Positions 900-38,285 of a stretch of 64,000 nucleotides of DNA are shown here, piece after piece. The notes below the pieces were generated by a model. That model was not told the DNA's origin. It did no database searches and worked only from the letters and a program-made list of their open reading frames with translations. Position numbers and translations under genes: made by a program. The stretch is taken from NCBI GenBank assembly GCA_023205875.1, contig CP060770.1, forward strand, positions 248,001-312,000, in the 5' to 3' direction. The stretch is from Chloropicon primus. Lineage: Eukaryota. Within the stretch, counting starts at the first letter, position 1, and the number at the start of each line of letters is the position of its first letter.

Positions 900-2910
900 A
901 TGGCGGGAAAGAGTTTGCTCTCTGCAATCCTCGCTGCTTCGGAGAGGAAGAGGACGAGGGAGGATGGGAGCGGAGGCCAACGCCGCGAGGGAAGGGTCCA
1001 GCCCTCCTCGATGCTCTCCTCCTCCTTCGGGTCGAGAGCGAAGGGGAGTGAACCCAGAACCAGCGAGGCATCACCATCATCACCATCATCACCAGCACCA
1101 GCACCACCAGCAGGAGGAGGAGGAGGAGGAGGAGGAGGAGGTTGTTTGTGCAAGAAGGATCGTGAGACGTTTTATGGCAGGAGGTGGGAGGATCAGCTTT
1201 GCAAGAAGGGAGTGCCAGGCCACCTGTTTGCCTTCTTTCGATCCTGTTGGGAGTTTCAGAGGGAGGAACTTGGCCAGGTGAGTCACGGACGACGTCGTCG
1301 GGTCGGTAGAGGACTTTGCAGACCTGACGTTCTCTGCTTGTATCGTTCGTTCCAGTCCTCCCCTTTGTCTTCTTCCGTGTTCAGCGATCCCTTCAAGACC
1401 TTCTCGAGGCAGAAGCAAATGTTCCAGTGGGTGGATGGGTTGGGGGCAACGGAGAAGCGGAGCGTGAAGTACTTCACCTTTGAGACCAGCGTGGTGAGAT
1501 CGGCCTCCTCCTCATTCTCGTCGTCGCAGGAGCACAGGAGGACGAAGAGGGTATTCCTGGCAACGACTTTGAGGCGGTTCTGGAGGCACTACAGCATTAT
1601 GCCAGCATTGTCTAGGCATCACTACGGTGAGATTATCCTTCGGGCGAAGAGCCTGAATCCCGGGCGAGCTTGTTCTGACGACGTTCTCTCTCTCTCTCTC
1701 TCTCTTCCTGCGCTTCAGAACTCATCAGAGAAGGGGAGCCTTGCTCCATGTATTTCGATTTGGAGTTTGCGGTGAAGCACAACGCCGGCCTCACCGCTCA
1801 GGGGGATCATCTCGTGGACGTCGTCCTGGAGCTAACCGCGCGTGAGCTACTCGAACGCTTCGGTCTCGGGATCGACTTGGGGAAGGACGTGGTCGAGCTG
1901 GATTCCTCGACAGAAACGAAATGGAGCCGGCACTTGATCATCCACTGGTAAGTTTAGAGTCCCTTCCTCGGGAACCCGATCAAATCCTCTCTGCTGTTGC
2001 CTGACTCTGCTCCCGTTGTTGCAGTGGCGGGAACTCTCTGTTGGCTTCCAACGCCCACGCCGGAGCTATAGCTCTGTCGGTGGTGAACCGATTGTTTTCG
2101 AAACTCGAAGAGGATGGTGGCGACAGGTACAGGAGCCTCCTTGTTCGCAATGGCGAGGGCGCGGAGACTCCGCTGATTGATCTGAGCGTCTACTCGAGGA
2201 ACAGGACCTTCAGAATTTTCAAGTCGAGCAAATTCGGGAAGCACGCGGAGCTGCGGTCCACCAGCCGTTTTGTGGGAGGGGATTACCTGAAGGAAGAGGC
2301 TGGCCAGGTAAACGCAGATCAGAAAGACAAGACCTTTTTCCTCAGCAGCCTTGTTTGTGGCCAATGCCCGAAGGAGAAGAAACTCTTGCACTGCGAGGAG
2401 GTTCTTAGGGTAGCCTCAGAATCAAAGCCATTCAATCCAACGAGCCGTTCCAATGCCAGGGCGGGTTGCGCGTCCGCTCCAGCGAGGATCGAGGAGGGCG
2501 ATGGACATTTGGCGAAGTTTCCATTGCTGGCAAGCTTCATCGCGAGGACAATGAGTCCCGATGGCCAGCCCCTGGGAAGGATCCGGTCGCACGTTCACTT
2601 TGTAGAATCCGGGACAATCATTCTGAACCTCGCGACGAATCGGTACTGCTCTCGCATCAAGAGGCAGCACAAGTCCAACGGAGTGTTCCTGGTCGTAGAT
2701 TGCAGCTTGGGTTACTGGTGGCAAAAGTGTTACGACCCGGATTGCAGGAGTTACCGTGGCGACCCCCAGGCGCTTCCTTTGGACGTTCTCGTTGAAGTCT
2801 CCGAAGAGATTCAGCAAGTCGCGGAGGACGAAGACTTTCTGAGAGCGATCGACGAGATCGAGGAGAGGCACTTGCACTGCCAAAACAAACATGTTGTAAG
2901 TAAATATTAA
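900..2910 (+). CDS. PRIMPOL: PrimPol DNA primase-polymerase (AEP domain plus UL52-type Zn finger), 3 introns (1278-1355, 1627-1718, 1948-2024)
   Basis: Splicing joins HHY-E-LIREGEPCSMYFDLEF (DxE motif), KWSRHLII (SxH), DLSVYSRNRTFR and the C-terminal RYC..IKRQHKSN...QKCYDPDC Zn finger. All introns are GT..AG with CTGAC branch points and preserve frame. Confidence 0.92.
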
Positions 2911-2930: not shown

Positions 2931-5117
2931 TCAACTGAAACTCAGCGTGAGCTTCAGAGATCCTTCCTCCTCGGGACCCACGTTAACTGCGAGCTTCACT
3001 GGACTTTTTTGTGCTTCCTCGATCGACTCCTGGCTCACCTCCTCTACGAGATTATCCACGAGGTCGTCGATATTGTCTGAGCTCAACTCCTCGATAAGGC
3101 CGTCCACCAGGCTGTCGATGTATTGGCTGTTTTCGTCTGTCTGACCCTCCAGAGGTTCCTCTCCCATCATTTGGTCGGGGCTCTCTTCCGCCAAGTCCGG
3201 GTTGAGAGGGCCGAAGCCAGCTGAGCCTCGGCTCATCATTCCCATGGTGCCCCTGCTCGTCGCCCTGCTTGACGCGTTGGCAGTGGTCGCACGAGAGGTG
3301 CTGCCGCTCGTGCTCGGCGGCGTGTCGTACAAGCCGTTCACCCGATCCATCTCAGCCCACTTGTCTTGCCCCTCGTACAGAAGAACCGTCTGCTGCTTGG
3401 CATCGTGAATGGCCAAGATGTCCAAGAGCTCGGCAAAGTGCACTCCCAAGATGGCATCTTTCTCCACCTCCTCGGGCACGGAGACGATCGCAGGCAAGTC
3501 CTGCTCCTTCTTGGTCTGCAACTCCTCGATGAGGTCCAACCGCCTCTCCTTGCCGCTGTACATCTCGTTCTGGGTCGCCCTGCCCCTCAGGAGCCTCTGA
3601 AGGAGAATGATGGCGTTCTCGCTCGCCACTTGGTTTGGATCCGGAATCTCCACCATCACCACCTCCTCCTTCTCCAGCTGGACCTTCTTCTTCTTCTTGA
3701 CCTGTTCGAGGGCAGACGGCGCGGATGCCTTCTGCTGGTTCGTCGCAGCGAGTGGCTGCGGCCAGCAAGAACCGATGCCCCTCCTGCCGTTGTCCTCCTT
3801 GCTCTTCTCCAAGAGATCCATCACGTGCTCAAGCTGCTTGGTCACCACCTTGGCTGCCTTCTGCCCCAAGTCCCTGTCCTTGTGGCCAGGGATGTCATTG
3901 GCCTTCTCGTTCTGCAACGCCCTGTACTCCTCCGGAGCGAGAGACTCGAAGTTCAGAGTGTTCTGCATGGAAACGAAGTTGGTGATCTCGCGCGGCTGGT
4001 AAGGCACCGGATCGATCGTGGTCTCGTCCATCACGGCATCGGCGGCCTTGCCCTCCCTCGTGAGGGGGGCGTAGACCTTGCTGCCGTAGTTGGCGTACTC
4101 CTCTGCCCTCGTGGGCTTCTCTGGCTTGAATGCGGAGAACTGCCTCTTCTTCTCCAGCTTCCTCATCGTCTTGATTCGCCTCTTCTGGATGTCAGCGAGC
4201 AGGGACTGGTTGTCCGCGATCTTCTGCCTCTCCAGCTTCTCCAGCCTCTTCTTCGTCTCGGCCTCCAGCCTCCTCTCCCTCTTCAGCAGCTGCTGCTCCA
4301 TCTTGTCCAGCCTCTCGTCCTGGACGATCTTGATCTCATTCTCGCGGTACGCCCACTCCTTGGACTCCCACTCGTCCAGCATGCGCTTCCTGACGTGAAT
4401 CTTGGATTGGTCCGACAATGGAGGCAAGCTCGCCTCGAAAGCACGCTTCTCTCTCATTTTCTCGATCTTCTGCACCTCGTACAAGCCCACCGGAAGCTGA
4501 AGCTTCTCGTCCGTGCCGTACTTGAAGTCCTTGAGGGTGAGCACCTCAGGCATGCCATTCAGATGGAACTTGTCGTCCAGCTTCTGCTGCTTCAGGGACA
4601 TGTCCTTGGGCAACACGTAGTCCGGCTCGTAAGGCTGCGTCTGCGTCTCCATCTCACGGTAGTCCGACTGCGTGCCGAACGTCCGGGACAACTTGGGCAG
4701 GCCCACAGGCTTCACCTCGTTGTCTGGAATGGGGTCCTGCGGCTCAAGCACGACGTTTGGTGGCGGCTGATCCAGCATCTGGTTGCTTGGTGCATAGAGC
4801 GGCCGCCTGAAGAACATGTACCGGTTGTTCCCACTCACGCGGTCCGCGTTTGACTTGTGTGTTACCTCTGCCAACGTCGCCGAAGCGTTGCCTTGGAACT
4901 CCCGGTTCACCGTGGGTGGCACCTTGTCCACATTGCGAAAGCGAACAGTCTGTGACGGATACGTCGGTATCTCACTGAACAGGTTGCCATACTGAGGCAC
5001 ACGTTCCAGGGTGAACCCGCCTGCTCTTGCCTGGTCGCGGTAAAAGTCTCTCGAGCCCGACACCGTATAGTCCTTGTCGTACAACGAGTCATAAGCTCTC
5101 GTCGGTTGGGACGTCAT
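2931..5117 (-). CDS. CFAP91: Cilia- and flagella-associated protein 91 (MAATS1/FAP91)
   Basis: TQSDYREMETQTQPYEPDYV, PEVLTL, GLYEVQKIEKMREKRAFEASLPPL, EWESKEWAYRENEI and IQ-like ILLQRLLRGRATQ. First ATG at 5117. Confidence 0.88.
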   Translation of the reverse strand: MTSQPTRAYDSLYDKDYTVSGSRDFYRDQARAGGFTLERVPQYGNLFSEIPTYPSQTVRFRNVDKVPPTVNREFQGNASATLAEVTHKSNADRVSGNNRYMFFRRPLYAPSNQMLDQPPPNVVLEPQDPIPDNEVKPVGLPKLSRTFGTQSDYREMETQTQPYEPDYVLPKDMSLKQQKLDDKFHLNGMPEVLTLKDFKYGTDEKLQLPVGLYEVQKIEKMREKRAFEASLPPLSDQSKIHVRKRMLDEWESKEWAYRENEIKIVQDERLDKMEQQLLKRERRLEAETKKRLEKLERQKIADNQSLLADIQKRRIKTMRKLEKKRQFSAFKPEKPTRAEEYANYGSKVYAPLTREGKAADAVMDETTIDPVPYQPREITNFVSMQNTLNFESLAPEEYRALQNEKANDIPGHKDRDLGQKAAKVVTKQLEHVMDLLEKSKEDNGRRGIGSCWPQPLAATNQQKASAPSALEQVKKKKKVQLEKEEVVMVEIPDPNQVASENAIILLQRLLRGRATQNEMYSGKERRLDLIEELQTKKEQDLPAIVSVPEEVEKDAILGVHFAELLDILAIHDAKQQTVLLYEGQDKWAEMDRVNGLYDTPPSTSGSTSRATTANASSRATSRGTMGMMSRGSAGFGPLNPDLAEESPDQMMGEEPLEGQTDENSQYIDSLVDGLIEELSSDNIDDLVDNLVEEVSQESIEEAQKSPVKLAVNVGPEEEGSLKLTLSFS

Positions 5118-6240
5118 CTTGATGTTACCCAATGGGGCAAGGAACTGGTGAGTTAAGAGAAGCTCTGCCTCCTCGGTAGGTCAACAACCTCTTCTGCTTC
5201 ACCAAGGTCCTTGGTGGCCACGAAGCCTCTGCTGTATCCTTATGGCCCCTCTCTCCACTCTCTCCCTCTCCACTCTCTCTCTCTCTCTCTCTTGGGCCGG
5301 CTCACCGAAGCCAATGGGTAATGAGGAGGGGACTCGTTCCAACGCCGGTCAACACCTTCCGCTTCCCTTGGCTCCTGCCTTGCACCCTATGCTCCTCCTC
5401 TCTCCACCCTGGCTCAAGGACTCTAATACCTTGGAGATGGAATCTTTCCAAGAATGCCGGGACCAAATCACAAGAGTGAGGGGTCTATGGAAAGGTACCG
5501 AGTTGCTCTACAATCTTGCGCAATCTTTTTGCGGTATCACTGCGTCTTTCCTCGTCAAAGGTGTCGTCCAAAGTGACCCCTTTGGCCCTCCGCCGGTGGC
5601 CTCGATCTCCCTAGAGTCAAATGAATTTTTGGTGAATTTCTCGAACGCGAGAAATCGGCACAAAAAAAACGCGGAAATGTTGAAGACACACTGGAAAATC
5701 TACTCTGGAAATCTTCGAAAAGAAACAAAAAAAAAAGGGAAAACGAAGGAGGAACCATTTAATGCGGGATTTCTACTGTGGGGCCCCCAAAATTGAAATT
5801 TTGACCGTAGCGTTCGATTATAGTGTTAACACGTGTACACTCGTTCTCCATTTTTGAGAGAGAGAGAGTGAGAGTGGCTGAGGGCTAGAGAGGTTTGAAG
5901 ACAAGTCGGCGCCTTTTCAAGGGTTTCTGGTCGACAAGAGGGAGGAGGAAACCGCATTGTTCGATAGATCATCTTCTTCTCTTTTGAATGAGCCCCTCCT
6001 GAACGATTTTGGCTCTCGGACGGCTCGGCAAAAGTTGGTTGAAGGCATTGTTTCGTCTTGGCGAGTGAGGAGGCTTCAGAGGGAAGTCGGCGACGTCAAG
6101 GGAAGAGGTCGATATCGTGAACAACGGCATCAGAGAGATCATCTCACGATCTTTCGATTGATCGTTTCCTCGTTCGATTTGGCTTCGTACTCGATCCGCT
6201 GGAGTGTGATGATCAGCGAGTGAGCGCCAGCGTGGTCGCC

Positions 6241-10579: not shown

Positions 10580-11834
10580 CTATCCCGTCGCCTCCACGAC
10601 GTCTTTGATGAGTTTCGCCAGGACCTTCGCATCGTCCGATTCCGTGGACTTACTCTTCTCCCTAAGGGCATTCAAGACGCGCTTCTTTGTGTCCTCCTGC
10701 TCTTTCTTCCTCTTGGCAACGGCCTTGAGCTCTTGATCCAGAATTGCCGTGGGACTCACCTTCCCGGCCTCGTCTGAGCATGCATCCGAAGCAGGAGCTT
10801 GTGAAGGTGGTCCCGCAGGCGCCGCTCTCTTCGTCGCCTTGCTCCAAAACTCCATCGCGGGCTGAAGCATCATACCAACCAGGGTGGACTTCTTCTTTTT
10901 GGCAGGCGGCGCCGGAACCGGGTCGTCGGCAGCCTTGTGCGGCCTTTTGCACCCCTTTACTTTAACAGTGACCTTGTTTTCCTTTCCCCCTCCCCGGTGA
11001 TTCTGATTTGCTCTCTTCTTGTGTTCTCGTTGCTCTGGCCTCTGGCCTTTCTTGTCGCTGGTCAATTTTGGCTTGGGCTTTGAGCTTTCAAGCCCTTCCT
11101 TCATGTGGTCCCTGACGTCCAAGAGGTCCAAATCTATTTCCACGCCCGTTTCTTTCCTCCTCCTCGCGAGATCCCGCCGGAGCGCCGTCAGCTTGTCCTG
11201 TGATGGCTTAACGCGGTGCTTGTAAGCACAGTACGTGATCTCGCTGACAGCTTGCAAGTAAAGCTTTTTACTGCTCTCGTCCTTCATCCTGTGGAGCTTC
11301 TTTACAGCTCCTTCGATGGTTTTGTCGTTTCTGCTGCTGTCGCACCACAGCTTCATCATCCCTTGCAAGCGGATCACGAATACAACAAGTAACAGGACAG
11401 AGAGAAATAAACAGGTCAGAACGAATCGATCGGCCGAGGCAATGGCCCCACCCCGGGTGCGCGGATGCTCCCGAGTGGCGGTCACTCCACCGCAGTGTGG
11501 ACCGACACCTCCGCTGTCGTCGTCGTCGTCGTCGTCGTCGTCGTGCGTAGGCCACTTTACCTTTCTGGACGAATTCCCACGAACCATCGCCGTAAAATCG
11601 CACCAGGAACGTCTCAGTCGACTTCTTGTTCATCCTCAGCTTCGCCCTGTGGTCCTCCTGCACCTTGAGGACGTCAGCCTTGTCCAAGCCCAAAACAAGT
11701 TTCGAGAGATCTAGGGGTATGACTTGAGCTGGCCACATGGGAAACGGCTTGAGCTCGCACAAAACCAAGTCACCGTCATGAATTTCACTCGAGGAGGTGC
11801 TGGACTGTCCCTTCCCCCTCTCTCCGTCCGTCAT
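10580..11834 (-). CDS. PWWP-domain chromatin protein, one intron (11362-11560)
   Basis: GDLVLCELKPFPMWPAQV...FLVRFYGDGSWEFV is a PWWP signature. The GT..AG intron joins it in frame to the ORF ending at 10580 (KGMMKLW...LYLQAVSEI). Confidence 0.75.
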
Positions 11835-11915: not shown

Positions 11916-12210
11916 TCAAATCTTCTTCACGACGCTTCTCGAGGCAAGCCACCGATCGATCGAAAGATAATGAAGAGATGACCACTTCAGTGATGGTCTC
12001 CCTCGCTCTCACCTCCTCCTCGCGCTCTCTCCCTCCCTCGGAACGACAACCTCCTATCTCTCTCTCTCTGTCGACCGTTTCACTTGGTCAAAATCCTCTT
12101 CACGACGCTTCTCGAGGCAAGCGACCGATCGATCGAAAGAGAATGAAGGGGCGATCACTTCTGTATCGGTCTCCCTCGCTCTCCCCCTCCGCCTCGCGCG
12201 CCCTCTCTCT
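11916..12210. repeat. Diverged direct duplication, period ~173 bp
   Basis: CACGACGCTTCTCGAGGCAAGC...GATCGATCGAAAGA...GGTCTCCCTCGCTCTC begins at 11928 and 12101. Confidence 0.85.
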
Positions 12211-12327: not shown

Positions 12328-12778
12328 GAGGATCGCGAGAGGAGAGAGAGAGGAGTTGCTAAGAAGACGACGCGTCCGTAGATCTTTCGAACGCTACCTC
12401 GGTTGGCAATTTTGGATCATTCCGGAGTGATTTGCACCTCGGAGGAGCATCGAAGCAGAGCATATAGCATTGACATAACTTTTGTCTTTCGAGGCAGTGG
12501 CGACGAGAGCGAGAGGGAGGGAGAGGAAGGGGACGAGGTGCAGCTCTTTCGAAAGACAATCTCGCGATCTTTCGAAAGAGTGGTCGCTCGACTCGTTTGG
12601 ATCATGGGAGTGAATGATACGGCGGCTTGCTTCGAAGACGTAAGGTGCAGGAGAAGTGTGCAGTGAGGGTGGCAGAGGTTTCGCTCACCGTGTTATAGAG
12701 GGAGCATGCGGCGTTGTGGCATCGAGGAGTATCGTGCTCATCGGATTGAGTAGCTCCTTTCCTTTATTTTTTTCCGTG

Positions 12779-14410
12779 ATGGCTGTCTTCTTCAGAGCTG
12801 GTTTCAACGCCGTGAGGAGGAAGGGGAGCCTCCTGGGTTGGAGCGGCCCTGGTCACGTCCAGCCATGCTTGTTTGGGTTTCACAGAAGTTTCAGCCGCGA
12901 TGCCGATGCTTCGGACGTCGTAGGAAACGCGGATGCTTACGACTATGACCTGCCAGAGGACCTAATTGCTCAGAAGCCGATCACTTGGCTCGACACCGAC
13001 CGGGCCGAGGTTCGACGCAGGGACGCTTCGAGGCTGCTGTGCGTGGACGTCACTGACGAGGGGAGTCATCCAATTCAGTTCCTGAGGCAATGCAAGTTCA
13101 CTGACGTGGCCTCGTTCTTGCCCAAAGGAAGCTTGCTTGTCGCGAACAACACAAAAGTTGTCCACGCCAGACTGCAGATGAGAAAGCGCACGACTGGGGG
13201 AGCGGTGGAGCTGCTGGTGGTCTCCCCCGCGGAGGGGTCGTGCGAATCGGGCCTGAGCTCCGGTCCAGCAGAGGCATCTGCGACGTGGAAGTGCATGGTG
13301 AAGGGAAAGAATGTGAATGAGGGCACTGTTTTGATCAAGCAGCACAGCTCTGGAGTGGTTCTGAGTGCGACCATTCTGAAGAGGAGTGAGGAGAGCAGCA
13401 AGTTTGCGGACGTTGAATTCAATTGGTCGGTGGAGGGCTCCTCCGATTCGAGTGGAAGGAAGTTTGGGGACGTCCTTGAGGCCTTGGGCTCGATCCCCTT
13501 GCCGCCGTACATGAAGAGAGCGGCGGAGACTCGGGACGCGGAATCGTATCAGACGATATACGCCGGAGTGCCGGGAAGTGTCGCTGCACCAACCGCAGGT
13601 CTTCACTTCACGGAGGACCTCGTGGGGAAGCTTGAGAGGTCCAGGAGCATCTGCTTGGAGAAAGTCACTTTGCACACCGGCCCTGGGACATTTGTGCCGC
13701 TGCAGTCGAGCAAAGTCCAGGACCACCATATGCACACAGAAACATTCTCCGTCACCAGAGAAGCTCTGGCCAACGTGTGCGAGTACTTGAGGGAGGGCAA
13801 AGACGGGGCGAAGAACCTCATTGCAGTCGGAACGACGACAGTCCGGACCCTGGAAACGCTGTACTGGCTGGGTCTGCGAAGGATGCTGCGAGAACCGGGG
13901 GGGAAGCCGATGGATGATGCCACACCGCTTGATCAGCGCGATGATGAGGGGAAGTCAAAGGTCTTAACTTTTAGCCTGGACCAATGGGAACCCTACGACG
14001 TGGTTCGAGACGCTTGCGGCCAGGATTGGAGCAAGCTGCCCGATGCCTGGGCTTGCTACCAGAACCTTTTGGAGGAGTTGGACGACCAAGGAAAGGACGG
14101 GGTTTTGGGCCAGACATCCTTGCTGATCATGCCGGGCTACAGGTTCCGGGTCTGCGACCAGCTCTTCACCAACTTTCATGCGCCGAAGACGACTCTGATG
14201 CTTCTCGTTTCGGCCTTTGCCTCGTCCTCGTGTGGCACACAAAACGACCTCGGCTTGCTCGACAGGCAAGGGAGGCAGAAAGTCCTCCATGCTTACGAGC
14301 AAGCAGTGAAGCACCGGTTTCGATTCCTCAGTTACGGCGATGCTTGTTTTTTCGCCAGGTTCAAAGACCTCCCATCACCCATGTTTGAGCAAGCCACAAG
14401 TTTGCTGTAA
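12779..14410 (+). CDS. queA: S-adenosylmethionine:tRNA ribosyltransferase-isomerase QueA with N-terminal organelle (mitochondria-like) presequence
   Basis: DYDLPEDLIAQ, RDASRLL, LVANNTKVVHARL, GSIPLPPYMKR, YQTIYA...GSVAAPTAGLHFT, VTLHTGPGTF, HHMHTE, IAVGTTTVRTLE, TNFHAPKTTLMLLVSAF, YEQAV...RFLSYGDA. All the QueA family motifs are present in order. Confidence 0.96.
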   Translation: MAVFFRAGFNAVRRKGSLLGWSGPGHVQPCLFGFHRSFSRDADASDVVGNADAYDYDLPEDLIAQKPITWLDTDRAEVRRRDASRLLCVDVTDEGSHPIQFLRQCKFTDVASFLPKGSLLVANNTKVVHARLQMRKRTTGGAVELLVVSPAEGSCESGLSSGPAEASATWKCMVKGKNVNEGTVLIKQHSSGVVLSATILKRSEESSKFADVEFNWSVEGSSDSSGRKFGDVLEALGSIPLPPYMKRAAETRDAESYQTIYAGVPGSVAAPTAGLHFTEDLVGKLERSRSICLEKVTLHTGPGTFVPLQSSKVQDHHMHTETFSVTREALANVCEYLREGKDGAKNLIAVGTTTVRTLETLYWLGLRRMLREPGGKPMDDATPLDQRDDEGKSKVLTFSLDQWEPYDVVRDACGQDWSKLPDAWACYQNLLEELDDQGKDGVLGQTSLLIMPGYRFRVCDQLFTNFHAPKTTLMLLVSAFASSSCGTQNDLGLLDRQGRQKVLHAYEQAVKHRFRFLSYGDACFFARFKDLPSPMFEQATSLL

Positions 14411-14490
14411 AGCCACGCAACCTTCCCACACAAAACCATCTGATTATATTATATATTATTATATTCTACACTGCTGTACAACAAACAAAC

Positions 14491-15309
14491 TCAAACCTTT
14501 CCCTTGCGGCTCCTCTGGACGAGAGCTCGGAAGGGCAAGAGGGATGCCAAGGCCACTGCAATTTTGATGGCGTAGTCCCCAGTTGCGAGCGTGGCCCAGT
14601 GAGGCATACTCGCGTCGCCATAAAAAGCCAGGAACTGTTTCATCCGGCAAGGCAGGAGCGTCGCGGTTAGCAAAGAATCGTGGTATCGAGGACTTGCAGG
14701 GTGTGCTGCGCTTGGCACTTACCGTGAATAAATAGCTATCGACGCAAGAGCTGATGCTCGTGCTGACCAGCGGAGCCTTCCACCATTCCTTGTCCCTTAA
14801 TTTGCTGAATATGTAAACGTCAAGAAGCTGGGAGAGCAGGAAGGAAGTCCCAGAAGCTGCTGCGATGCGCACTGGACTCAACAGCAGTGAGGCAGATACT
14901 CCCGCGCCGAATCCAAAGTAGACCACTTGACGCGCGCGATCCGCACCGTAGAGTCTGTTCGTAACGTCTGTGACGAGGAAAGCAACCGGGTAAGTGAGCG
15001 ATCCGACGGTGAGCCAATCCGACAACGGGAATTGCGCGAGGTAATTGCTTGCCACGACACTGACGACCATCGCACCCGTGGGAAACACGGGAAGGTCGGG
15101 CAGGCGAGGTCCCTCCCCCTCGACGGCGGCCTCTTGTCCATCCACCTGCTCGTTCTCCTTGGTCTTGCCACTGAAGCAGACTCCGTGGCCACTTCTCGTG
15201 CTGTAACAACTCGTGCTGTAACAAGACCGTCCTCGATTGAGATCAGGAGAGTTGGCCCCGAGCAAGCGCCTCCGAACAGCAACCACGCCCCCTCGACTCG
15301 CCGTCACCA

Positions 15310-15341
<32 letters not shown>

Positions 15342-15574
15342 TCGGTCGACGCCACTCTCGACCATGAAGCGGAGGAGGCAACGGAAGTGTGCTGATGCCT
15401 CAATCGGGGTTCACATGCCGCAGCTGCTGCTGCTCTTTCAACTCCTCCTCCGCCGTTGTGGAGGCACAGCAGCCGGTGAGCTGGTAAAGACTTGTCCCCT
15501 TGAAGGGATGAAAGCCAAACTCCTGGAGAGCATCGAGTCAAGAAGGCGACTCCTCTTGACAGGAATTCCGCCAT
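14491..15574 (-). CDS. yhhQ: YhhQ/Vut_1 (COG1738) queuosine-precursor transporter with long N-terminal targeting-like extension, one intron (14635-14722)
   Basis: MVVSVVASNYL, WLTVGSLTYPVAFLVTDVTNRLYGADRARQVV, RIAAASGTSFLLSQLLDVYIFSKLR..WWKAP..S...SSCVDS. A GTAAGT..CTAAC..CAG intron restores LFTFLAFYG...WATLATGDYAIKIAVAL..LPFRAL. Confidence 0.9.
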
Positions 15575-16777: not shown

Positions 16778-18508
16778 ATGGCATCATCATCCAGTGTGGT
16801 GATCCATGGGCTGAAGCAGCGAGGCCTTCGAGTGAGGAGGAGGCCCGCAGTGGAGTCGAAGAAGGTTGTGTGGACGAGTTCCAGTGCCGCCAGAGCCTTC
16901 GGTTCCAAGTCTGAGTTCGGTTTCCCTGACTTGGAGAAGGCAAGAAAGCTGGCACAGGATGCCTTTCAAACGATTATCGTGGACAGCGACGACCCCATCG
17001 CTGGGGCCAAGAGAGTGGCCCAGGCTCTGCAAGCTGGGGCCTCTGTCTTGGGCGAGGCCATTGAGTCCGGAGAGTCCGAAGCTTTGATAAAGGACGCAAC
17101 GGACGCGTTCCGGCAAGCCGTCGCGGAGATTGAGCAACAACAGGACCCCGCATCGCCGACGACTGCGTTGATGTCAAGCTCGGAAGAGTCGCTGAAGAGG
17201 TCAGCAAAGTTGTTGAGAAAGTTTTTCGAGAAGATGGGAGCAGCTTACGTCAAGCTCGGCCAATTCATAGCGTCATCGCCGACTTTGTTCCCAAAAGTCA
17301 TCGTGGACGAGTTTCAAGAGTGCTTGGACTCGGTACCTCCGCTGAGCTACGACGAGGAGATTTACAAGATCATCCAGCAAGAGTTGGGCGGCGAGTCAAG
17401 GGTGAGGGAGGTATTCACGAGAATCGACAAGGCCCCGTTGGCAAGCGCGTCGATTGCGCAGGTGCACAGGGGCACCTTGAGATCGACGGGGGAGAGCGTG
17501 GTCCTGAAAGTCTGCAAACCTGACGTGGCGAAGTCCCTCCGGACGGACTTGGATGCCGTGTACCTTGCTTGCAGGGCGTTCGAGCTCTTTGATCCAACCC
17601 TCGAGGAGAGGGTTGGCCTCTCAAGCATCATTCAGGACGCCAGGGACTCAATATTGGCGGAGACCAACTTGGAGCAGGAAGCGAAGAACATGCAGGTGTT
17701 CAGAGAATTTTTGAGCGCAAGTTCAGGGGCGGGTGCCTTTCGGGATGTTTACGTGCCAAAAGTGTACAAGCAGTACAGCACGAGGAAGGTCCTCGTCATG
17801 GAAGAGCTCCGGGGCGTCTCCTTGTCGGATTACCTTGAAGGGGATGCCGGCTACAAGAGAATGGCGAGTTCCATGGGCACGGAGGGGCTTATCATCGAGG
17901 CGTTGAACGCGTGGATTGCTTCCGTGGGCATGTGCGAGTCCTTCCATGCAGATGTCCACGCCGGCAACCTCTTTGTCCTCAGCGACGGAAGGCTGGCCTT
18001 CATTGACTTCGGCTCGGTGGGTAGGATCTCTCCAAAGACGAAGAGGTCCTTGGAGAACTTGGCGTACTGCCTCCCAAGGGGAGACTGGAGGGGAGCCGCG
18101 AGTGCTCTGGTGGGGATGGGGGCCATCATGGGAACCGAGGCGGAGACTAGCGCTGTGATCGACCCCCTGGCAAGGGACCTGGAGTACATGACCGACAGGG
18201 TGGACAGGTTGGTGCAAGATATGATGGTCATGGAAGTCAACGTCACCACGGCCTCGATTGGGGCTCTCTCTGGTGACATTGACCCGAGCTCCATGCCTCC
18301 GCCACAGCTGAACTCTTTGGACATCGCCGAGAGGATCAACAGGCTTGTTCTTGACGTGGTCGACATTGCTGAGAAGAGAGGTTTGAGGTTCCCAAGGGAA
18401 TTCGCTTTGCTGATCAAGCAAATGCTTTACTTCGACAGGTTTGTTCAAGAGCTGGCGCCCGAGCTCGACGTGCTGACCGACGACAGAGTCGACAAGACTC
18501 TGACGTGA
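16778..18508 (+). CDS. ABC1/UbiB-family atypical kinase (ABC1K), probably plastid
   Basis: MGAAYVKLGQFIASSPTLFP, PLASASIAQVH, VVLKV, VLVME, FHADVHAGN, FIDFGSVG, FPREFALLIKQMLYFD. Confidence 0.93.
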   Translation: MASSSSVVIHGLKQRGLRVRRRPAVESKKVVWTSSSAARAFGSKSEFGFPDLEKARKLAQDAFQTIIVDSDDPIAGAKRVAQALQAGASVLGEAIESGESEALIKDATDAFRQAVAEIEQQQDPASPTTALMSSSEESLKRSAKLLRKFFEKMGAAYVKLGQFIASSPTLFPKVIVDEFQECLDSVPPLSYDEEIYKIIQQELGGESRVREVFTRIDKAPLASASIAQVHRGTLRSTGESVVLKVCKPDVAKSLRTDLDAVYLACRAFELFDPTLEERVGLSSIIQDARDSILAETNLEQEAKNMQVFREFLSASSGAGAFRDVYVPKVYKQYSTRKVLVMEELRGVSLSDYLEGDAGYKRMASSMGTEGLIIEALNAWIASVGMCESFHADVHAGNLFVLSDGRLAFIDFGSVGRISPKTKRSLENLAYCLPRGDWRGAASALVGMGAIMGTEAETSAVIDPLARDLEYMTDRVDRLVQDMMVMEVNVTTASIGALSGDIDPSSMPPPQLNSLDIAERINRLVLDVVDIAEKRGLRFPREFALLIKQMLYFDRFVQELAPELDVLTDDRVDKTLT

Positions 18509-29767: not shown

Positions 29768-30815
29768 GCCGTGCTTCGCTTCACCGGTGCGGTGACTTCA
29801 ATCGGAACACGGCACAAGAAGCAGAAAAACATTCCTCATGACGGTGACGAACTCAATCCCTTGCTCAAGCAACAACGCTGTCCATGGGAGTTGGTGACCT
29901 GATTGATGCTCCCTTGCGTAGTGTCTCGCCCCGCTAACCGATGCCAGCGTCTGTGGAACGGTCGTGAGACAATCTACCGCTTCAGAATGGGCCACTCTCC
30001 CGAGATGTCGAGAACCAAAAGAGATGCGACGCCAAACAAACTTTGTTGGAGATGATGCTGGTGCTGGTGCTGATTGACGATGTTCCTCAAGTATCGTCGC
30101 GAATCCGAGGCAAAACCCAAGCAATGCCGGGTGGAATCGAAAGACCGAGAGATGATCTACCACTTGATCGTGCTCTCTCTCCCTCTGCTGCGCTCCCCTT
30201 TCTTCCAGAGGCGCCCAAACCCAAGCCAATCGCCGCCTCGCTCGCAAGGCTCCAATGGTACACTCAGGAAACGCCTCCCTCGCTTCCCACCTTCAGATTT
30301 AAAAAACGTCTCCTGAAGAATATTGAGGTCTACATAACGATGTACCAAGATTTCCACAAAAGTTCAGATTACGAAACGTCTCGCGAAGAAATTGAGAAGA
30401 TTTCCGAATTGACCTTTGACCTGAAAATTGAAAATCCGTTGAGGGGGTTCACACCATCGAGGCCCGAGGCTGCCAAAGGGATCAGGTGAGTTGGCGCAGG
30501 TGTATCGAGCGAGCCAAGGCGTTCCCGAGCAAGTCACTCCCTTGATTCGAAAGTTCGCATCTTTGTCTTTCGTTTGACCCATCTTTGGGTCGATAGGGTC
30601 CCTTGGTTTGTTGTGACAAGTGTCCTTTATTGACTCTTTTCGTCTCGTGTGTTTGGTACCTTTGCCTCTTGGTAAGCGTGGTTCACCAGAGGCCCAGCCA
30701 GAGGAAGGGAGAGGGGACCGTGGATTCTCTGAAAGCCATTCGTTTGCTGATGGTTTCCATCGCCTTTTAGGGTTTTTTTCTTTATTGGCAGCAGTACCAG
30801 TCAGTGGACCCAACT

Positions 30816-33800
30816 ATGGCAGAAGAAGGGGAGGAGGTGCCTCCACCAGAGGCAGCAAAGGAGGAGGAGGAAGTTGTGGGCGGGGAGGAGGAACAAGCGT
30901 CGGCGGACGCCGTGGAGGGGGCAGGAGAGGCACCAACTGAGGAGGAGCTTCAGCTTCAAAGGGCTCAGTCTGCGGTGTCTGCCCAACAGGAGGCAGAGGA
31001 GCCACAGGAGGAGCCACAGGAGGCTGCTCCAGCGGAAGCAGAAGCAGCAGAAGAAGCGGCTGCTGCCGCTCCAGCAGAAGCAGCAGCGCAAGGAAAGGAA
31101 GAAGTAGTCGCTGCCGCTCCAGCAGGAGCAGCAGAAGAAGAAGCTGCTGCTGAAGCTGCGGGTGACGAGTCTGCGGGTGACGCGGACTCTGGCTCCCCTG
31201 CGGAGAAGGAGGCCGACCTCGCGGACGAGGAAGCCGCTGCGATCAAAATTCAGGCGGCTGCCCGGTCCAAGGCGACGCGCAAGAAGCTGGCCAAGGAGAA
31301 GCAGGAGAAGGAGGAGGCCCTGTCGCAGTCGCACTGGGCCGAGTCTGGGCTGCCGGACGACAGGTACCTCGCAGACGGGTACTATAAGCGTAGCCAGTTC
31401 GACATCGATGCATCCATTGCCGGCAGCAACGTTGCTGGCCTTTCCCTCAAGCAGGGCCTCGGTTTCGAGTCGACCAAGAGGCACAACACCATGCTGGTGG
31501 AGGACGACGTTCTCCTCTACTCTACTGGAAAGTTCTTGGTGCTCCACAAGTACAGCTTGGGCACGAGGCTCTACCTGCCTAGCTTGGACGGAGGTGGCAT
31601 CGGAAGCTTCGATGTCCACCCATCGCGCAAGTACATCTGCGTCTGCGAGAGGTTGGAGCCGGCCCTGATCGCGACGGGGAGGACGCCAAACGTTTACATT
31701 TACGAGTACCCGAGCTTGAGGATCTACAAGGTGCTGAAGAGCGGCACGGAGAGGGCGTACTGCGCGTGCAAGTTCAACCAGCTGGACCAGGGAGCGACCT
31801 TGGCCACGGTGGGCTGCTACCCTGACTTCCTCCTTTCGGTGTGGAACTGGAAGGAGGAGAAGATGATCCTGAGGTCCAAGGCTTTCAGTCAGGACATTTA
31901 CAGCGTCAACTTCTCACCAAAGTTCGAGGGGCAGCTGACCACCAGCGGGACGGGTCACATTAGGTTCTGGAAGATGGCCGGCACGTTCACCGGACTCAAG
32001 CTGCAGGGAGCGATTGGCAAGTTCGGAAGCGTCGAAATCTCAGACGTAGCCGCCTTTGCCGAGCTCCCGAATGGCAGCGTGGCCTGCGGTACGGAGAATG
32101 GTGACATCTTGGTCTGGGACGGAGGCTTCATCAAGACGTTCTTCACTCTGCCGAACGGCGAGCCTTGCCACAAGGATATGATCGAGGTGGCCCAGATTTG
32201 CAAGGCCAAGGACAACAGCCAGTACTTGATGACGGGAGGAATGGACGGGTACCTCAAGTTCTGGGACTTGAAACTGCTAATGGAGCTCGAGTCGGACGAC
32301 GACGCGGGAATCAATTGCAGCATCGCCCCAGCCAAGCAGGCTCTCATCGAGTGTCCTGGAAGGCCAGGCAAGAAGGTGGCCATCAAGACTGTGATCGAGA
32401 AGGGGAAGGACAGGTACATCATCCAGGACCACAACGGCGCCATCATCGAGTTGGCTGCCAGGAAACCAAAAGACGCCTCAAGCGATGCGTCGGAGGGCAC
32501 ACTTGAGCTCTCCGTTTCATCGTCGAAGGCGATCATGAAGTGCCACAGCGGTAACATCGTCGGCCTCATGCCTTCCCCCGTGTCTCACCACATGGTCACC
32601 GCGGGCGAGGACGGCTCCGTGAGGGTGTACAACTATACCCAGGACACCACCAAGTCCTTGTTCGAGATTTCCTTCCCGGTTCCTGCCACGGCGCTGACGG
32701 GCGTGCCCAAGTCAAGCGATCCTTCGGGCCGAATCGTCATCGTTGGTTTCGAAGATGGCGTTGTCAGAGTCCTACTGAGGTGCCTCGACGGCTTCAAGAC
32801 GTTGTACGTCGGCAAACCGCACAAGGACGCCGTCACTTCGGCTTGCGTGTCCCCAGATGGTTCCTACTGCGTGACTGGCTCCAAGGACAAGACACTTTTC
32901 TTCTTCTCCACCAAGATACCTTTGAGCGACGCCAACGGTGCGGGTGCCATGGGGATGGTAGAGGAAGACGGCAGCGACCAAGCCAAGTCAGAGGACGGGA
33001 CTGGACCAGAGGGAGCGGGAACGGCCACAAATGACTTGGAATTCAAGCCCCTTGCGTACATTCCCACTCCGGACGAGGTGACCACCGTGAGTTGGCACGC
33101 CGAGTCTCAAGTCTTGCTCGTCGGATGCACCAATGGTGACATCCTTGAAGTGGAGCGCCCTCCGCTGGACGTGGATACCTTCAAGACGTTCGAGACGCAG
33201 TGCAAGACGAGGTTTTACGACTTCCAGAAGCCCAAGCTGAAGAAGCCCAAGGAGAAGGAGGAGGAGGAGGGCAAGGAGGAGAAGAAGGGCGAGGGCGATG
33301 CCGACAAGGCGGAAGGAGCCGATGATGGCGAACAGAAGGAGGAGGAAGAAGAGGAGGAGGAGGAAGAGGACGAGACATCGGGTTACCCTGTAAGGGAAAT
33401 CATGTACGTCACCGATAAGGATGGCAATGCGAGCCACAACTTCTACGCTACCTTTGGAGGGAAAGCGGCCGGCCACATGTTCTTGTGCAACGTTGATGAG
33501 GACGAGGTTCTTGAAGCCATTCCCACGCACGACATGCCAATGACCCACCTTTCGTACTCGCACAAGTCCAAGTATTTGGTGTCCGGATCCACGAACGGTG
33601 TCGTGCGCATCTGCTCCCTGGATAGCGAGAAGACAAAGGATTCCAAGGATGAGAGCGGAAAGCTCAGCGATTTTGTTGAGGTGGGCATGCACGGCGGGAA
33701 CGTGTCCTGCGTTGCGACCTCTTTTGACGAATCGGTCATCATCACCGCGGCTTCGGATGGCTCCTGTTTCATCGTGAAGAACTTCCTCGAGGAGGAAACC

Positions 33801-36629
33801 GTGGAGTCCCGAATCAAGATTCCAAAGGCTCCATCGGTGCCGTTGCCCACTATGCTGGCAGAGGAACGCACTCAAACCTCCGAGGAGATTGTCGGCAAGG
33901 AGCACTACAGCATCGAAGAGGCGAAGAAGAAGACTGACAGGGATAAGAAACTGAGCAACGCTGAGGCCAAGAAGGCTGCCTTGCGCGACAAGGTCGCAGA
34001 AATTCGTAACGCTTTCCAGGCCTTGCTGAATGCAAACAAAAGCAAGGAGGATGTGAAGCAGCTGAACAGAGAGGAGTTCCTCATCGACATGAACCTGCAA
34101 GAGATGCTGGACAAGAACCTGGCCAGCGCTTTGAACGAAGTTGAGCTAGAGGAAGCGTATGAAAGCGAAAAGGGTCGCATTGGCCGCGAAAAGCTTCAGC
34201 AGTGGTTCTTCGACAAGGTCGAAGTGGAGCGCATCGAGCTGCATGCTTTCAAGTCGGAGCTCAGCACGTCGACATTCCGAACGACCAAGCTGCCTCCCGC
34301 CGTCCAAGAGGAGCTGGACGCCGCCAGGAAAGAGGCCCAGACAAAGGAGACTGAGGAGGAGGCCAAGGACGGCGCTGCGATGGAGAATGCTGCCGCCGTG
34401 GAGGCGCCGAAGGCAGGTGCAGGGGACAGGAGGGCCTCAAGAACCACGCAGAGCGAGGTGCAGGACAGCAAGGCTGCGAAGAAGGAAGACACGCACGCAA
34501 GGGAGGTCGAAAAGAAGCTCAACAAGCAAGAAATGAGAAGAGAGCAGCGAAGGAAGAGGGACAAGGAATGGCAAGTCTTCAACAAGACGAAGCCTGACGA
34601 GAAGTTTGAGAACCCAGAGGATGTTGCGGCCATTCAGACGGCTGTCGACAACATGGGGGATTTCAAGCTGAAGAGTGATCCGAATTATATCGCCCCTGAG
34701 GAGGAGCGAACCAATGTGGACAAGAAGAGGAGGCAGCTCCATTTGCTCGATGCGAAGATCCACGGCATCAAGATGAGCTTTAACAACAGACTCCTCTCGC
34801 TCCGTGACTTGAAGAAGGATCTCATCGCTCAGATTGACGAAAGCAACAAGAAGCTCACCACTCTTCGAAAAGACTTGAAGCAGTCGGAGGAGCTGTTTAC
34901 CCCCAAGATGCTGCCCACCGAAATGCCGGAGCTGAGGTACGAGGTCAGCAACGAGGAGGTAGCGGAGTTCCTCAACAAGGCGAAGGAATCGGAGAAGAAA
35001 GAGGGTTTGGGTGGAGGCGGCTTTGGTGGGTTTGGCGGGGCGGCCAAGGCAGCGGTGGCTGCAAAGAAGGGGCCTAGCATCGGAACTGCAGCAAAGGTTC
35101 ACAGTTTTGCGAAGAAGATCAGAAGAAGCAGTTTGGCTGGTGAGAGGCGCTACAGTGCCATTGCTGAGTTCCGTGCGTCCGACGTGGAGATCAAGGAGAT
35201 GCTTCTGCAGAAGAGGATGCTTCAGCACGAGATCGAAAACATCGAGGATCAGATCAAGAACAGCATTGTTGACTTCGACAAGAACCTCGACAAGCTGAGG
35301 CAGGACAAGTTCACGCTTCAGGCTGATCTCAAGATGGCCGAAATCAGGAGGATCATCCTGGTCAAAGAGCTCGCGATTCTGAAAGAGTGCGAGAAGAGGG
35401 ACAACTTGCTGATCAACAAGATGGACACCAAGGGGGGGGAGAAGAAGGACATTATTGACAAGATCAAGTCTTGCACCGAGAAGATCGAAGAGAAGGAGGG
35501 CGAGATTCACAAGGTTCTGGAGAAGAAGAACAAGATCTTGTCAGAGTTCGACTCTCTGGTTGAGGATGGGTCCACCTTCAGGGAGCAGCTTCAGAAGATC
35601 TTCTTGAGGAAAATCAAGAGGCACAAGAAGAATGCAAAGAGGACCGAGGACTTCGACTCGGAGGAGGAGTCCGACAGCGAGGAGGAAGACGACGACGATG
35701 ATGACTGGGATGAGGACGAGGCCGAGGAGATTTGCCCACCTGGTTGCGACCAGGCCCTCTACGAGAAGGTCTGCGACCTTCGTGAGAAGAGGCTGGACCA
35801 GGAAGAGATCGACGTGGAGCTGAAGAAGCAGCTGGAAACCTTTAACAAGGAAAGGGAATCCATGAAGAAGAAGCAGAACCTCATCAACCAATCGGTGAAG
35901 GCCATTAACGAGGAGATCATCAGCTTCCAGAAGGAGAAGCAGGCAAAGTTGAACGAGATTCTTCTCGTGGTTACTTTGAAGATGCACCAGATCGAGTATC
36001 TCGTGGAATCTAAACTGCCACTGAACCTCACTGACGCTCTCGTCTTCCCAAAGACGACGTTGAGGAGGCTCGAGGAGCGTGTCGGCGAATTGATAGAGGA
36101 GAAGGCACAGCTGAAGCAGGAGCAGAAGGAGTTGCGGAAGCAGCACAAACAGATGCTTCGTGACAGCAAGGTGAAGGAGGGACGAATCAATGAGCTTCAG
36201 TCCAAGGCAAGAGATATCCAGCTCTTGAAGTTCGGACAGTTGATTGATTTGGACTTGTTGGACAAGATGGGTGTGAACAAAACCACCGAAGACCTCAAGG
36301 CGAATTTGCTAAGGCAGGAGAAGCAGTTCATCCACGACTTGGCTCAGTGGAACAAGAGGATCGAGGGGGCGAAGAGAGAGTTGGCCGATTTCACGCAAGA
36401 GAATACCAACTACTTGAACATGCTCGCCGATTTGACTTCCTCCCAGAGGCAGATTGATCTCAAGTTGCACTCGACCCAGAATGAACTTTTCACCAACCCC
36501 GCGGCTCAGAGGAAGAAGGAGATTGCTGCCAGAGACCACCTCATCGAAGTCATTAACGTGCAGGCCCAGCAGATCGACGCTCTCAAGCACGAGATCAATT
36601 TGTTGAGACACAAGTCGGGCAAGCTTTAA
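30816..36629 (+). CDS. CFAP44: Cilia- and flagella-associated protein 44 (WDR52/FAP44)
   Basis: LATVGCYPDFLLSVWNW...ILRSKAFSQD, TSGTGHIRFWKMAGTFTGLKLQG.IGKFG..EISD, NMGDFKLKS, CPPGCDQALYEKVCDLREKRLD, LKFGQLIDLD. N-terminal IQ motif. Confidence 0.95.
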   Translation: MAEEGEEVPPPEAAKEEEEVVGGEEEQASADAVEGAGEAPTEEELQLQRAQSAVSAQQEAEEPQEEPQEAAPAEAEAAEEAAAAAPAEAAAQGKEEVVAAAPAGAAEEEAAAEAAGDESAGDADSGSPAEKEADLADEEAAAIKIQAAARSKATRKKLAKEKQEKEEALSQSHWAESGLPDDRYLADGYYKRSQFDIDASIAGSNVAGLSLKQGLGFESTKRHNTMLVEDDVLLYSTGKFLVLHKYSLGTRLYLPSLDGGGIGSFDVHPSRKYICVCERLEPALIATGRTPNVYIYEYPSLRIYKVLKSGTERAYCACKFNQLDQGATLATVGCYPDFLLSVWNWKEEKMILRSKAFSQDIYSVNFSPKFEGQLTTSGTGHIRFWKMAGTFTGLKLQGAIGKFGSVEISDVAAFAELPNGSVACGTENGDILVWDGGFIKTFFTLPNGEPCHKDMIEVAQICKAKDNSQYLMTGGMDGYLKFWDLKLLMELESDDDAGINCSIAPAKQALIECPGRPGKKVAIKTVIEKGKDRYIIQDHNGAIIELAARKPKDASSDASEGTLELSVSSSKAIMKCHSGNIVGLMPSPVSHHMVTAGEDGSVRVYNYTQDTTKSLFEISFPVPATALTGVPKSSDPSGRIVIVGFEDGVVRVLLRCLDGFKTLYVGKPHKDAVTSACVSPDGSYCVTGSKDKTLFFFSTKIPLSDANGAGAMGMVEEDGSDQAKSEDGTGPEGAGTATNDLEFKPLAYIPTPDEVTTVSWHAESQVLLVGCTNGDILEVERPPLDVDTFKTFETQCKTRFYDFQKPKLKKPKEKEEEEGKEEKKGEGDADKAEGADDGEQKEEEEEEEEEEDETSGYPVREIMYVTDKDGNASHNFYATFGGKAAGHMFLCNVDEDEVLEAIPTHDMPMTHLSYSHKSKYLVSGSTNGVVRICSLDSEKTKDSKDESGKLSDFVEVGMHGGNVSCVATSFDESVIITAASDGSCFIVKNFLEEETVESRIKIPKAPSVPLPTMLAEERTQTSEEIVGKEHYSIEEAKKKTDRDKKLSNAEAKKAALRDKVAEIRNAFQALLNANKSKEDVKQLNREEFLIDMNLQEMLDKNLASALNEVELEEAYESEKGRIGREKLQQWFFDKVEVERIELHAFKSELSTSTFRTTKLPPAVQEELDAARKEAQTKETEEEAKDGAAMENAAAVEAPKAGAGDRRASRTTQSEVQDSKAAKKEDTHAREVEKKLNKQEMRREQRRKRDKEWQVFNKTKPDEKFENPEDVAAIQTAVDNMGDFKLKSDPNYIAPEEERTNVDKKRRQLHLLDAKIHGIKMSFNNRLLSLRDLKKDLIAQIDESNKKLTTLRKDLKQSEELFTPKMLPTEMPELRYEVSNEEVAEFLNKAKESEKKEGLGGGGFGGFGGAAKAAVAAKKGPSIGTAAKVHSFAKKIRRSSLAGERRYSAIAEFRASDVEIKEMLLQKRMLQHEIENIEDQIKNSIVDFDKNLDKLRQDKFTLQADLKMAEIRRIILVKELAILKECEKRDNLLINKMDTKGGEKKDIIDKIKSCTEKIEEKEGEIHKVLEKKNKILSEFDSLVEDGSTFREQLQKIFLRKIKRHKKNAKRTEDFDSEEESDSEEEDDDDDDWDEDEAEEICPPGCDQALYEKVCDLREKRLDQEEIDVELKKQLETFNKERESMKKKQNLINQSVKAINEEIISFQKEKQAKLNEILLVVTLKMHQIEYLVESKLPLNLTDALVFPKTTLRRLEERVGELIEEKAQLKQEQKELRKQHKQMLRDSKVKEGRINELQSKARDIQLLKFGQLIDLDLLDKMGVNKTTEDLKANLLRQEKQFIHDLAQWNKRIEGAKRELADFTQENTNYLNMLADLTSSQRQIDLKLHSTQNELFTNPAAQRKKEIAARDHLIEVINVQAQQIDALKHEINLLRHKSGKL

Positions 36630-37799: not shown

Positions 37800-37802
37800 A
37801 CT

Positions 37803-38285
37803 GCTCCTTGGTTGTCCTCTCCTCTCTCTGTCTCTGCTTCAGCTGTCCAGAACATCACCAAGGAATCTCCGGGATCATAGGGAGAGGAAGCAGAGAGGAT
37901 GATGGGTGATGGAGGATCAGGGAGGGGTCAAGCAAAGGCGTTCATTCGTTTGCTTTGATTCAGGCTCCTTGGTTGTCCTCTCCTCTCTCTGTCTCTGCTT
38001 CAGCTGTCCAGAACATCACCAAGGAATCTCCGGGATCATAGGGAGAGGAAGCAGAGAGGATGATGGGTGATGGAGGATCAGGGAGGGGTCAAGCAAAGGC
38101 GTTCATTCGTTTGCTTTGATTCAGGCTCCTTGGTTGTCCTCTCCTCTCTCTGTCTCTGCTTCAGCTGTCCAGAACATCACCAAGGAATCTCCGGGATCAT
38201 AGGGAGAGGAAGCAGAGAGGATGATGGGTGATGGAGGATCAGGGAGGGGTCAAGCAAAGGCGTTCATTCGTTTGCTTTGATTCAG
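37803..38285. repeat. Near-perfect tandem repeat, 161 bp x3, directly upstream of kdsB
   Basis: GCTCCTTGGTTGTCCTCTCC... begins at 37803, 37964 and 38125. Confidence 0.95.

Follow-up and report, generated by a model that had tools for sequence, protein, structure and literature searches.

Two genes of queuosine (Q) salvage, queA and yhhQ, lie tail to tail within a 64,000-nucleotide stretch of the genome of the marine green alga Chloropicon primus (assembly GCA_023205875.1, contig CP060770.1, positions 248,001 to 312,000 of the forward strand), hereafter the window; their features are collected in Table 1. The queA gene is an uninterrupted frame without intron, from an ATG at 12779 to a TAA at 14410, and the distance from its stop codon to that of yhhQ is exactly 80 bp. 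The unspliced yhhQ frame (371 amino acids, aa, from the ATG at 15574) runs into unrelated sequence after YLFT. Removal of an 88-nt intron with the donor GTAAGT at 14722 restores the C-terminus of the family, giving a protein of 331 aa with its stop codon at 14493-14491; three splice forms were compared, and the two other acceptors were rejected because their C-termini are not of the family. The splice joint was present in all four sequencing runs, from three studies (the run types, three RNA and one DNA, are guesses, and all are assembled contigs, so that expression levels are not comparable). A transcriptome-derived protein (P0003) is exactly the spliced 331-aa YhhQ. The unspliced 371-aa frame also occurs as a protein (P0002) in the JGI and MMETSP collections, and stems either from an error of gene calling or from a transcript that kept the intron. 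In one run (X4) a single contig covers 12767-15301, across both genes, as would be expected if the 3′ ends abut or overlap, though this does not demonstrate one transcript. Both genes are intact, real and expressed. The coordinates and the spliced model thus bear out the initial annotation of this DNA, made from the sequence alone, which had described an intact queA (+) and yhhQ (-) 80 bp apart among eukaryotic genes.

The family assignments proposed there were upheld by profile searches. QueA matched PF02547 with 306.2 bits (gathering cut-off 25), and the spliced YhhQ matched PF02592 with 98.6 bits (cut-off 27.2) and TIGR00697 with 95.5 bits (cut-off 50.95). QueA also matches three QueA-family sequences in the PDB (1yy3, 1vky and 1wdi). 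Of 68 alignment columns in which 9 or more of 10 canonical QueA rows are identical, it keeps 64. A distinguishing feature is the spacing from the GTT..R..E motif to the TNFH motif, which is 104 residues in the algal protein and 72-104 in the 11 rows of this long type that were measured; of 10 canonical rows, 9 have 33-35 and the other (Collinsella) 59. The insertion contains the motif YW.G...QW.PY, common to the algal QueA and long paralogues from Bacteroidota, and the algal QueA falls in the long clade with Shimodaira-Hasegawa-like approximate likelihood ratio (SH-aLRT) support of 98 in a tree of 77 rows and 100 in one of 26 rows. Two QueA-family genes are present in each of Parabacteroides distasonis and Bacteroides finegoldii: one is canonical, of 349-352 aa and in the order truB-queA-folK, and the other is of 404-406 aa. 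When the algal QueA was searched against them with tblastn, the long copies gave E values of 2e-71 and 7e-66 and the canonical copies of the same two strains 1e-26 and 6e-21. Examples of the long paralogue in Bacteroidota and relatives are WP_010182051.1 and WP_055278651.1. Our literature search found no report of a test of the long copy.

The YhhQ transporter fails the model for Escherichia coli-type preQ0/preQ1 carriers, PRK11212 (105.2 against 252 bits), and the QPTR proteins of Rhodospirillum and Oceanibaculum likewise lie below this cut-off (112.7 and 116.3 bits). These two genera hold the closest named relatives, at 61-63% identity among the 240 matches listed of 3,094. The other named sequences in that set are mostly from alphaproteobacteria with a few from other proteobacteria, and it contains no other named eukaryote with YhhQ; Zallot 2017 (PMC5372724) found only four eukaryotic genomes with a member of the family. 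Bartonella homologues (the rows compared did not include B. henselae) are 37-43% identical to an algal YhhQ query and belong to the same short-type group. In a tree of 60 rows and 176 columns, which returned a warning of long branches at the root, the three algal rows group together and the donor is not resolved. From these matches, YhhQ is best described as a short alphaproteobacterial type. Substrates differ among members of the family, being preQ0, preQ1 or queuine (PMC11570991, PMC5372724). The nearest tested relative, the QPTR of B. henselae, carries preQ0 and preQ1, and from 500 nM upwards also queuine (PMC11570991).

The membrane domain of YhhQ is 100% identical to C. primus A3770_17p79880 / HOP50_17g80100. 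However, this GenBank model (P0291) is a protein of 163 aa that starts at Met169 and lacks the 168-aa extension. Both the open frame and the protein from the transcriptome begin 168 codons before the GenBank start, transcript contigs cover the extension on both sides of a short repeat, and the YhhQ of a relative (P0005, on contig L001) carries an Arg/Ser-rich extension that is equally long but unlike in sequence; the 331-aa form is the better gene model. The extension is rich in Arg and Ser (14 Arg and a net charge of +9 over the first 130 aa, 24-30% Ser+Thr in parts). That of QueA, about 45 aa, has 5 Arg, a net charge of +4 and 11% Ser+Thr. Bacterial relatives have neither; these are counts of composition, and a hydropathy scan made alongside gave weak segments only (maximum 1.7). 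Such presequence-like extensions occur on both proteins in two algae. The 331-aa form supplies a presequence-like candidate for the signal by which YhhQ would have to be targeted in the published pathway.

That pathway, like the locus and its linkage, is already known: Turmel et al. 2025 (Genome Biol Evol, PMC12301720, published in July 2025) describe queA and yhhQ as linked on chromosome 17 and, on genomic and predictive evidence, propose a mitochondrial YhhQ/BL-TGT/QueA/QueG route. Table 3 of that paper lists 17p79880/17g80100 as YhhQ and the adjacent tags 17p79870/17g80090 as QueA, together with BL-TGT, QueG, QTRT1/2 and QNG1, and DeepLoc and PredAlgo place all four route proteins in the mitochondrion. 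The initial annotation had left open whether the pair was undescribed, which it is not, and the probably mitochondrial preQ1-to-Q route that it proposed turns out to be the same predicted model. In this model, preQ1 of bacterial origin would enter the algal cell, and YhhQ, judging from its family and presequence, would move it over the inner mitochondrial membrane. BL-TGT, encoded on chromosome 8 (PMC12301720), would then exchange preQ1 for G34 in the tRNAs for Asp, Asn, His and Tyr, a putative activity. QueA, of assigned family and presumed activity, would add a ring derived from S-adenosylmethionine to turn preQ1-tRNA into epoxyqueuosine (oQ), and QueG, whose gene is given in PMC12301720, would reduce this to Q. 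YhhQ and QueA, taken for consecutive steps in the initial annotation, would therefore be separated by the TGT. Our preferred reading is that the products of both genes are predicted mitochondrial proteins, YhhQ importing a precursor, likely preQ1, and QueA making oQ-tRNA, and that their adjacency is likely a lineage-specific rearrangement; we give this a probability of about 0.62.

Several points weigh against this reading. QueA lies below two NCBIfam cut-offs (PRK00147, 311.5 against 324; TIGR00113, 257.5 against 267.45). These are passed by the long-type proteins of P. distasonis (349.1), Kapabacteria (356.6), Galdieria (363.3) and Nannochloropsis (327.5), and missed also by those of Porphyridium, P0123 and P0622; the narrow miss looks like an effect of divergence and insertions. 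The trees were computed quickly under LG+G4, with no bootstrap. The gene order of relatives comes from one contig of 2,142 bp and from Chloropicon roscoffensis, which do not fix the ancestral order. Two of three C. roscoffensis strains lack yhhQ and retain queA and queG (PMC12301720). The mitochondrial location is that predicted by the programs used in PMC12301720, and neither TGT nor QueG was found in the 64-kb window. Moreover, a TGT pocket of the preQ1 type has Val233/Cys158 (Z. mobilis numbering), and the algal BL-TGT differs there, with Gly and Leu as in the Chlamydia type (PMC12301720). For the TGT of C. trachomatis, queuine is given as the sole substrate (PMC11570991), and a eukaryal-type residue change in TGT lowers recognition of preQ1 (PMC3074131). 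The TGT is the weak link of the preQ1 model. The retention of QueA and QueG nevertheless argues that preQ1 probably still reaches tRNA in the alga.

The same pocket residues suit an explanation in which YhhQ mainly imports queuine for the Chlamydia-type BL-TGT, with QueA and QueG as a back-up or on the way to being lost. It would fit the use of queuine by both the TGT and the QPTR of C. trachomatis, the carriage of queuine at high concentration by the related B. henselae QPTR (PMC11570991 for both), and the loss of yhhQ independently of queA and queG (PMC12301720). However, at least four Chloropicon-like sequence clusters, 50-59% identical to the window QueA, contain an intact QueA that preserves the conserved columns, and red algae and Nannochloropsis have retained the protein as well. 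Its persistence across algae argues for a standing preQ1-tRNA substrate, and we consider the queuine explanation unlikely.

The adjacency itself was weighed against chance and against gene order in relatives. The probability that any two of four pathway genes adjoin among 8,639 genes is about 0.0014, whereas the probability of finding some such pair rises to about 0.24 if 200 small pathways are assumed, and spans 0.07-0.5 for an assumed 50-500. A total of 77 yhhQ loci was fetched in two sets, in which algal loci numbered 1 of 39 and 0 of 38. The single algal locus (L001; 2,142 bp, 63% GC, 71% identity) holds a yhhQ without intron followed by a PWWP gene on the same strand, with no QueA match within its 2,142 bp and none between the two genes. 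A closer inspection revealed this PWWP gene to be the orthologue of the one that lies beyond queA in the window (BLASTP E value 1e-17, both exons matching, PF00855 in both). On the contig of this one relative, yhhQ-PWWP would be a conserved pair and queA, being absent there, the variable element. In C. roscoffensis RCC2335, queA and yhhQ are on different chromosomes (PMC12301720). In both species queA lies about 27-32 genes from queG by the locus tags of that paper, assuming steps of ten; as queA stays near queG, the queA-yhhQ site may be a rearrangement breakpoint. Nine of the 19 chromosomes are rearranged between C. primus and C. roscoffensis (PMC12301720).

The initial annotation had taken the adjacency for a functional cluster and had proposed a comparison of synteny in related algae, and in the relatives examined the two genes proved to be unlinked. 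Given this lack of linkage in RCC2335, the absence of queA from L001 and the differing bacterial sources of the two genes (see below), the case for a functional cluster is weak and is not supported by the relatives seen. A selected adjacency, arising as a small metabolic cluster by relocation of queA or left from an ancestral cluster since dispersed in relatives, is accordingly doubtful. It would account for the low raw probability for four genes, the gap of just 80 bp, the position of queA between two genes that adjoin in L001, and a QueG gene some 27 genes off on the same chromosome. Set against it, in addition to the unlinked relatives, the widened estimate of chance and the frequency of rearrangement between the two species, are the placement of TGT on another chromosome (PMC12301720) and the tail-to-tail orientation, owing to which the genes share no promoter.

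One or both proteins may act in the plastid or in both organelles rather than in the mitochondrion alone, which we regard as slightly less probable again. The YhhQ extension is long and Ser-rich, and most green algae encode tRNAs with GUN anticodons in both organelles (PMC12301720). The GenBank protein lacks the extension, so the published location of YhhQ may derive from a truncated sequence. On the other hand, the QueA extension is short, Arg-rich and low in Ser+Thr, and the mitochondrion was predicted for all four proteins.

With regard to origin, the data point to different bacterial sources for the two genes, a long clade of Bacteroidota type for QueA and alphaproteobacteria for YhhQ; with the Chlamydial origin of BL-TGT given in PMC12301720, this would make the pathway a mosaic. 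Two of the 77 yhhQ loci (L003 and L068, the latter from an alphaproteobacterial metagenome-assembled genome) have queA immediately after yhhQ and both tgt and queG in the vicinity, an arrangement that a remnant of one transferred bacterial operon would recall. However, their queA is in tandem with yhhQ and of the short canonical type, whilst the algal gene is convergent and long. A grouping of the algal QueA with alphaproteobacterial QueA was rejected by the approximately unbiased test (p-AU 0.023) on the 26-row quick tree, from which 51 rows were left out (the unnamed rows except two QueH fusions, and five named rows of the FCB group). Moreover, QueA is shared with red algae, whereas the matches listed for YhhQ include no other named eukaryote. 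An operon remnant is thus largely refuted. Bacterial contamination or misassembly, which could be suspected from the bacterial best matches of both genes outside Chloropicon-like sequences in word-based searches, is refuted by the spliceosomal-type yhhQ intron spliced in three studies and the shared PWWP synteny, alongside presequence-like extensions, orthologues in related algae, the presence of queA-yhhQ in both published C. primus genomes (PMC12301720) and a host-like GC content (queA 0.574 and yhhQ 0.581 against 0.50-0.64 in nine other window genes; at third codon positions queA is in the range of the other genes measured and yhhQ slightly below, 0.63 against 0.66-0.84).

The long QueA type extends beyond Chloropicon. 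The ten top matches of a profile search were looked up and include named sequences from Galdieria partita, Porphyridium purpureum and Nannochloropsis oceanica, so that the view that eukaryotes lack QueA, adopted in the initial annotation, is outdated. Neither the 77-row nor the 26-row tree gave a well-supported grouping of Chloropicon QueA with red algae, and the trees do not show monophyly of eukaryotic QueA; PMC12301720 states the red algal grouping more firmly. A DNA pattern for the algal QueA gave 0 matches in metagenome contigs and 1 in the window, and is uninformative about absence. Fusions were scanned in 17 long-type proteins, most of them picked for unusual length: 2 carry QueH, 4 carry FolD with a pterin dehydratase, 7 carry EPSP synthase and 4 are QueA alone. 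The QueH fusions (P0586 and P0622) are predicted two-step enzymes from preQ1-tRNA to Q, and such a fusion supports a role of the long subfamily in Q synthesis. This pair groups with Galdieria and Nannochloropsis with a support of 92 in the 26-row tree, below the mark of 95. Judged by the insertions they carry and their place in the tree, the fusions with QueH or FolD are probably eukaryotic. A search of literature listings found no paper on QueA-QueH or QueA-FolD fusions. The proteins P0572, P0608, P0613 and P0673 (751-1237 aa) combine long-type QueA with FolD and pterin-4a-carbinolamine dehydratase, and two of them also have an NMT1/THI5-like domain at the N-terminus. The EPSP synthase (AroA) fusions are P0555, P0565, P0581, P0595, P0603, P0630 and P0638; three of these were included in the tree, where they lie with Bacteroidales-like rows. 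We tentatively suggest, as a conjecture we would not yet favour, that completion of preQ1 to Q in organelles is widespread in algae and protists through the long QueA subfamily, and is no mere relic in Chloropicon and red algae. On this view only Chloropicon would have acquired an alphaproteobacterial transporter, fitted with a new presequence, and so have become a mosaic of three donors.

Table 1. Positions of the genes and features discussed. Positions preceded by a locus number (L) refer to other contigs, all others to the window.
Feature	Position	Strand	Basis
queA, single exon, 543 aa, long subfamily	12779..14410	+	PF02547, PDB matches, trees, motif spacing
QueA N-terminal extension, about 45 aa, likely mitochondrial presequence	12779..12913	+	no counterpart in bacterial relatives; composition
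AT-rich gap of 80 bp separating both stop codons; 3′ ends converge	14411..14490	.	
yhhQ exon 2, final 47 codons and TGA	14491..14634	-	matches C-terminus of bacterial relatives
yhhQ intron, 88 nt, GT-AG	14635..14722	-	predicted; joint 14634-14723 in 4/4 runs
yhhQ exon 1: 168-aa extension (15574-15071), then QPTR/Vut_1 membrane domain from Met169	14723..15574	-	
PWWP-domain gene, two exons inferred	10580..11834	-	PF00855
ABC1 atypical kinase gene, divergent from yhhQ	16781..18508	+	PF03109, 183 bits
Bacterial yhhQ, queA, tgt, queG cluster	L068 2-3290	all one strand	
Bacterial yhhQ, queA, tgt, queG cluster	L003 1995-7566		
P. distasonis / B. finegoldii QueA-family genes	L078 3971-5185; L079 2986-4035; L080 3022-4242; L081 986-2044		

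The near neighbours of the pair are eukaryotic housekeeping genes, encoding XPB, an rRNA adenine dimethylase, the PWWP protein, the ABC1 kinase and a RING protein, and farther off in the window lie genes for beta-COP, dynamin, EF-2/EF-G and CSN5. An intergenic element of about 40 bp (12559-12601) is repeated on further contigs in each of the four runs, and near-duplicate stretches of about 90 bp, read by eye, lie upstream of the PWWP gene (about 11926-12020 and about 12098-12190); both elements are probably a small dispersed repeat. A KdsB-like cytidylyltransferase gene (36741-37838, -; PF02348, 188 bits) has the lowest GC content of the genes measured (0.50). The ORF at 2005-2907 (+) matches the UL52/UL70 primase zinc-finger model PF03121 with 44 bits, and we take it to be the likely zinc finger of a cellular PrimPol. 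Two flagellar-associated genes were also found, CFAP91 (2934-5180, -) and a gene for a WD40 protein with a CFAP43 coiled-coil match (30771-36626, +); C. primus is not known to be flagellate in culture.

Were the predicted route to hold, a eukaryote would finish Q from a bacterial precursor within an organelle, contrary to the rule of queuine-only salvage, and preQ1 would be a micronutrient exchanged between marine bacteria and picoalgae. As the pathway has been in print since July 2025 and is still a prediction, the present finding adds little as a discovery. Its additions are the corrected YhhQ gene model, the conflict flagged with the pocket of the TGT, and a broader collection of long-type QueA proteins, among them the QueH fusions; the remaining value lies in the biochemistry of the predicted route and in the wider long-QueA family.

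Lastly, we compared the algal system with those already described. The mitochondrial Q salvage of Chloropicon in PMC12301720 is the same locus, with the same linkage and the same model. The main text of that paper does not contain the 331-aa YhhQ with its presequence, the alphaproteobacterial type of YhhQ, the long type of QueA or the QueH fusions (its Fig. S5 may show part of this), and the strings 'Bacteroid' and 'Nannochloropsis' have 0 occurrences there. The preQ1 salvage of E. coli, QPTR(YhhQ)-bTGT-QueA-QueG/H (PMC5372724), has the families and the order of steps predicted for the alga, for which the table in PMC12301720 lists no precursor-synthesis genes. The algal route differs in that its genes are nuclear, dispersed, with an intron and with products predicted to be organelle-targeted, and in that its TGT is of Chlamydia type with a queuine-type pocket (PMC12301720). 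The long QueA paralogue of Bacteroidota has no presequence and co-occurs with a canonical truB-queA-folK copy, whereas the algal protein has a presequence-like extension. The QPTR of Bartonella henselae (Quaiyum 2024, PMC11570991) is alphaproteobacterial, like the algal YhhQ. However, Bartonella lacks QueA and QueG and has a TGT of the preQ1 type, and is in this respect the mirror image of the alga.

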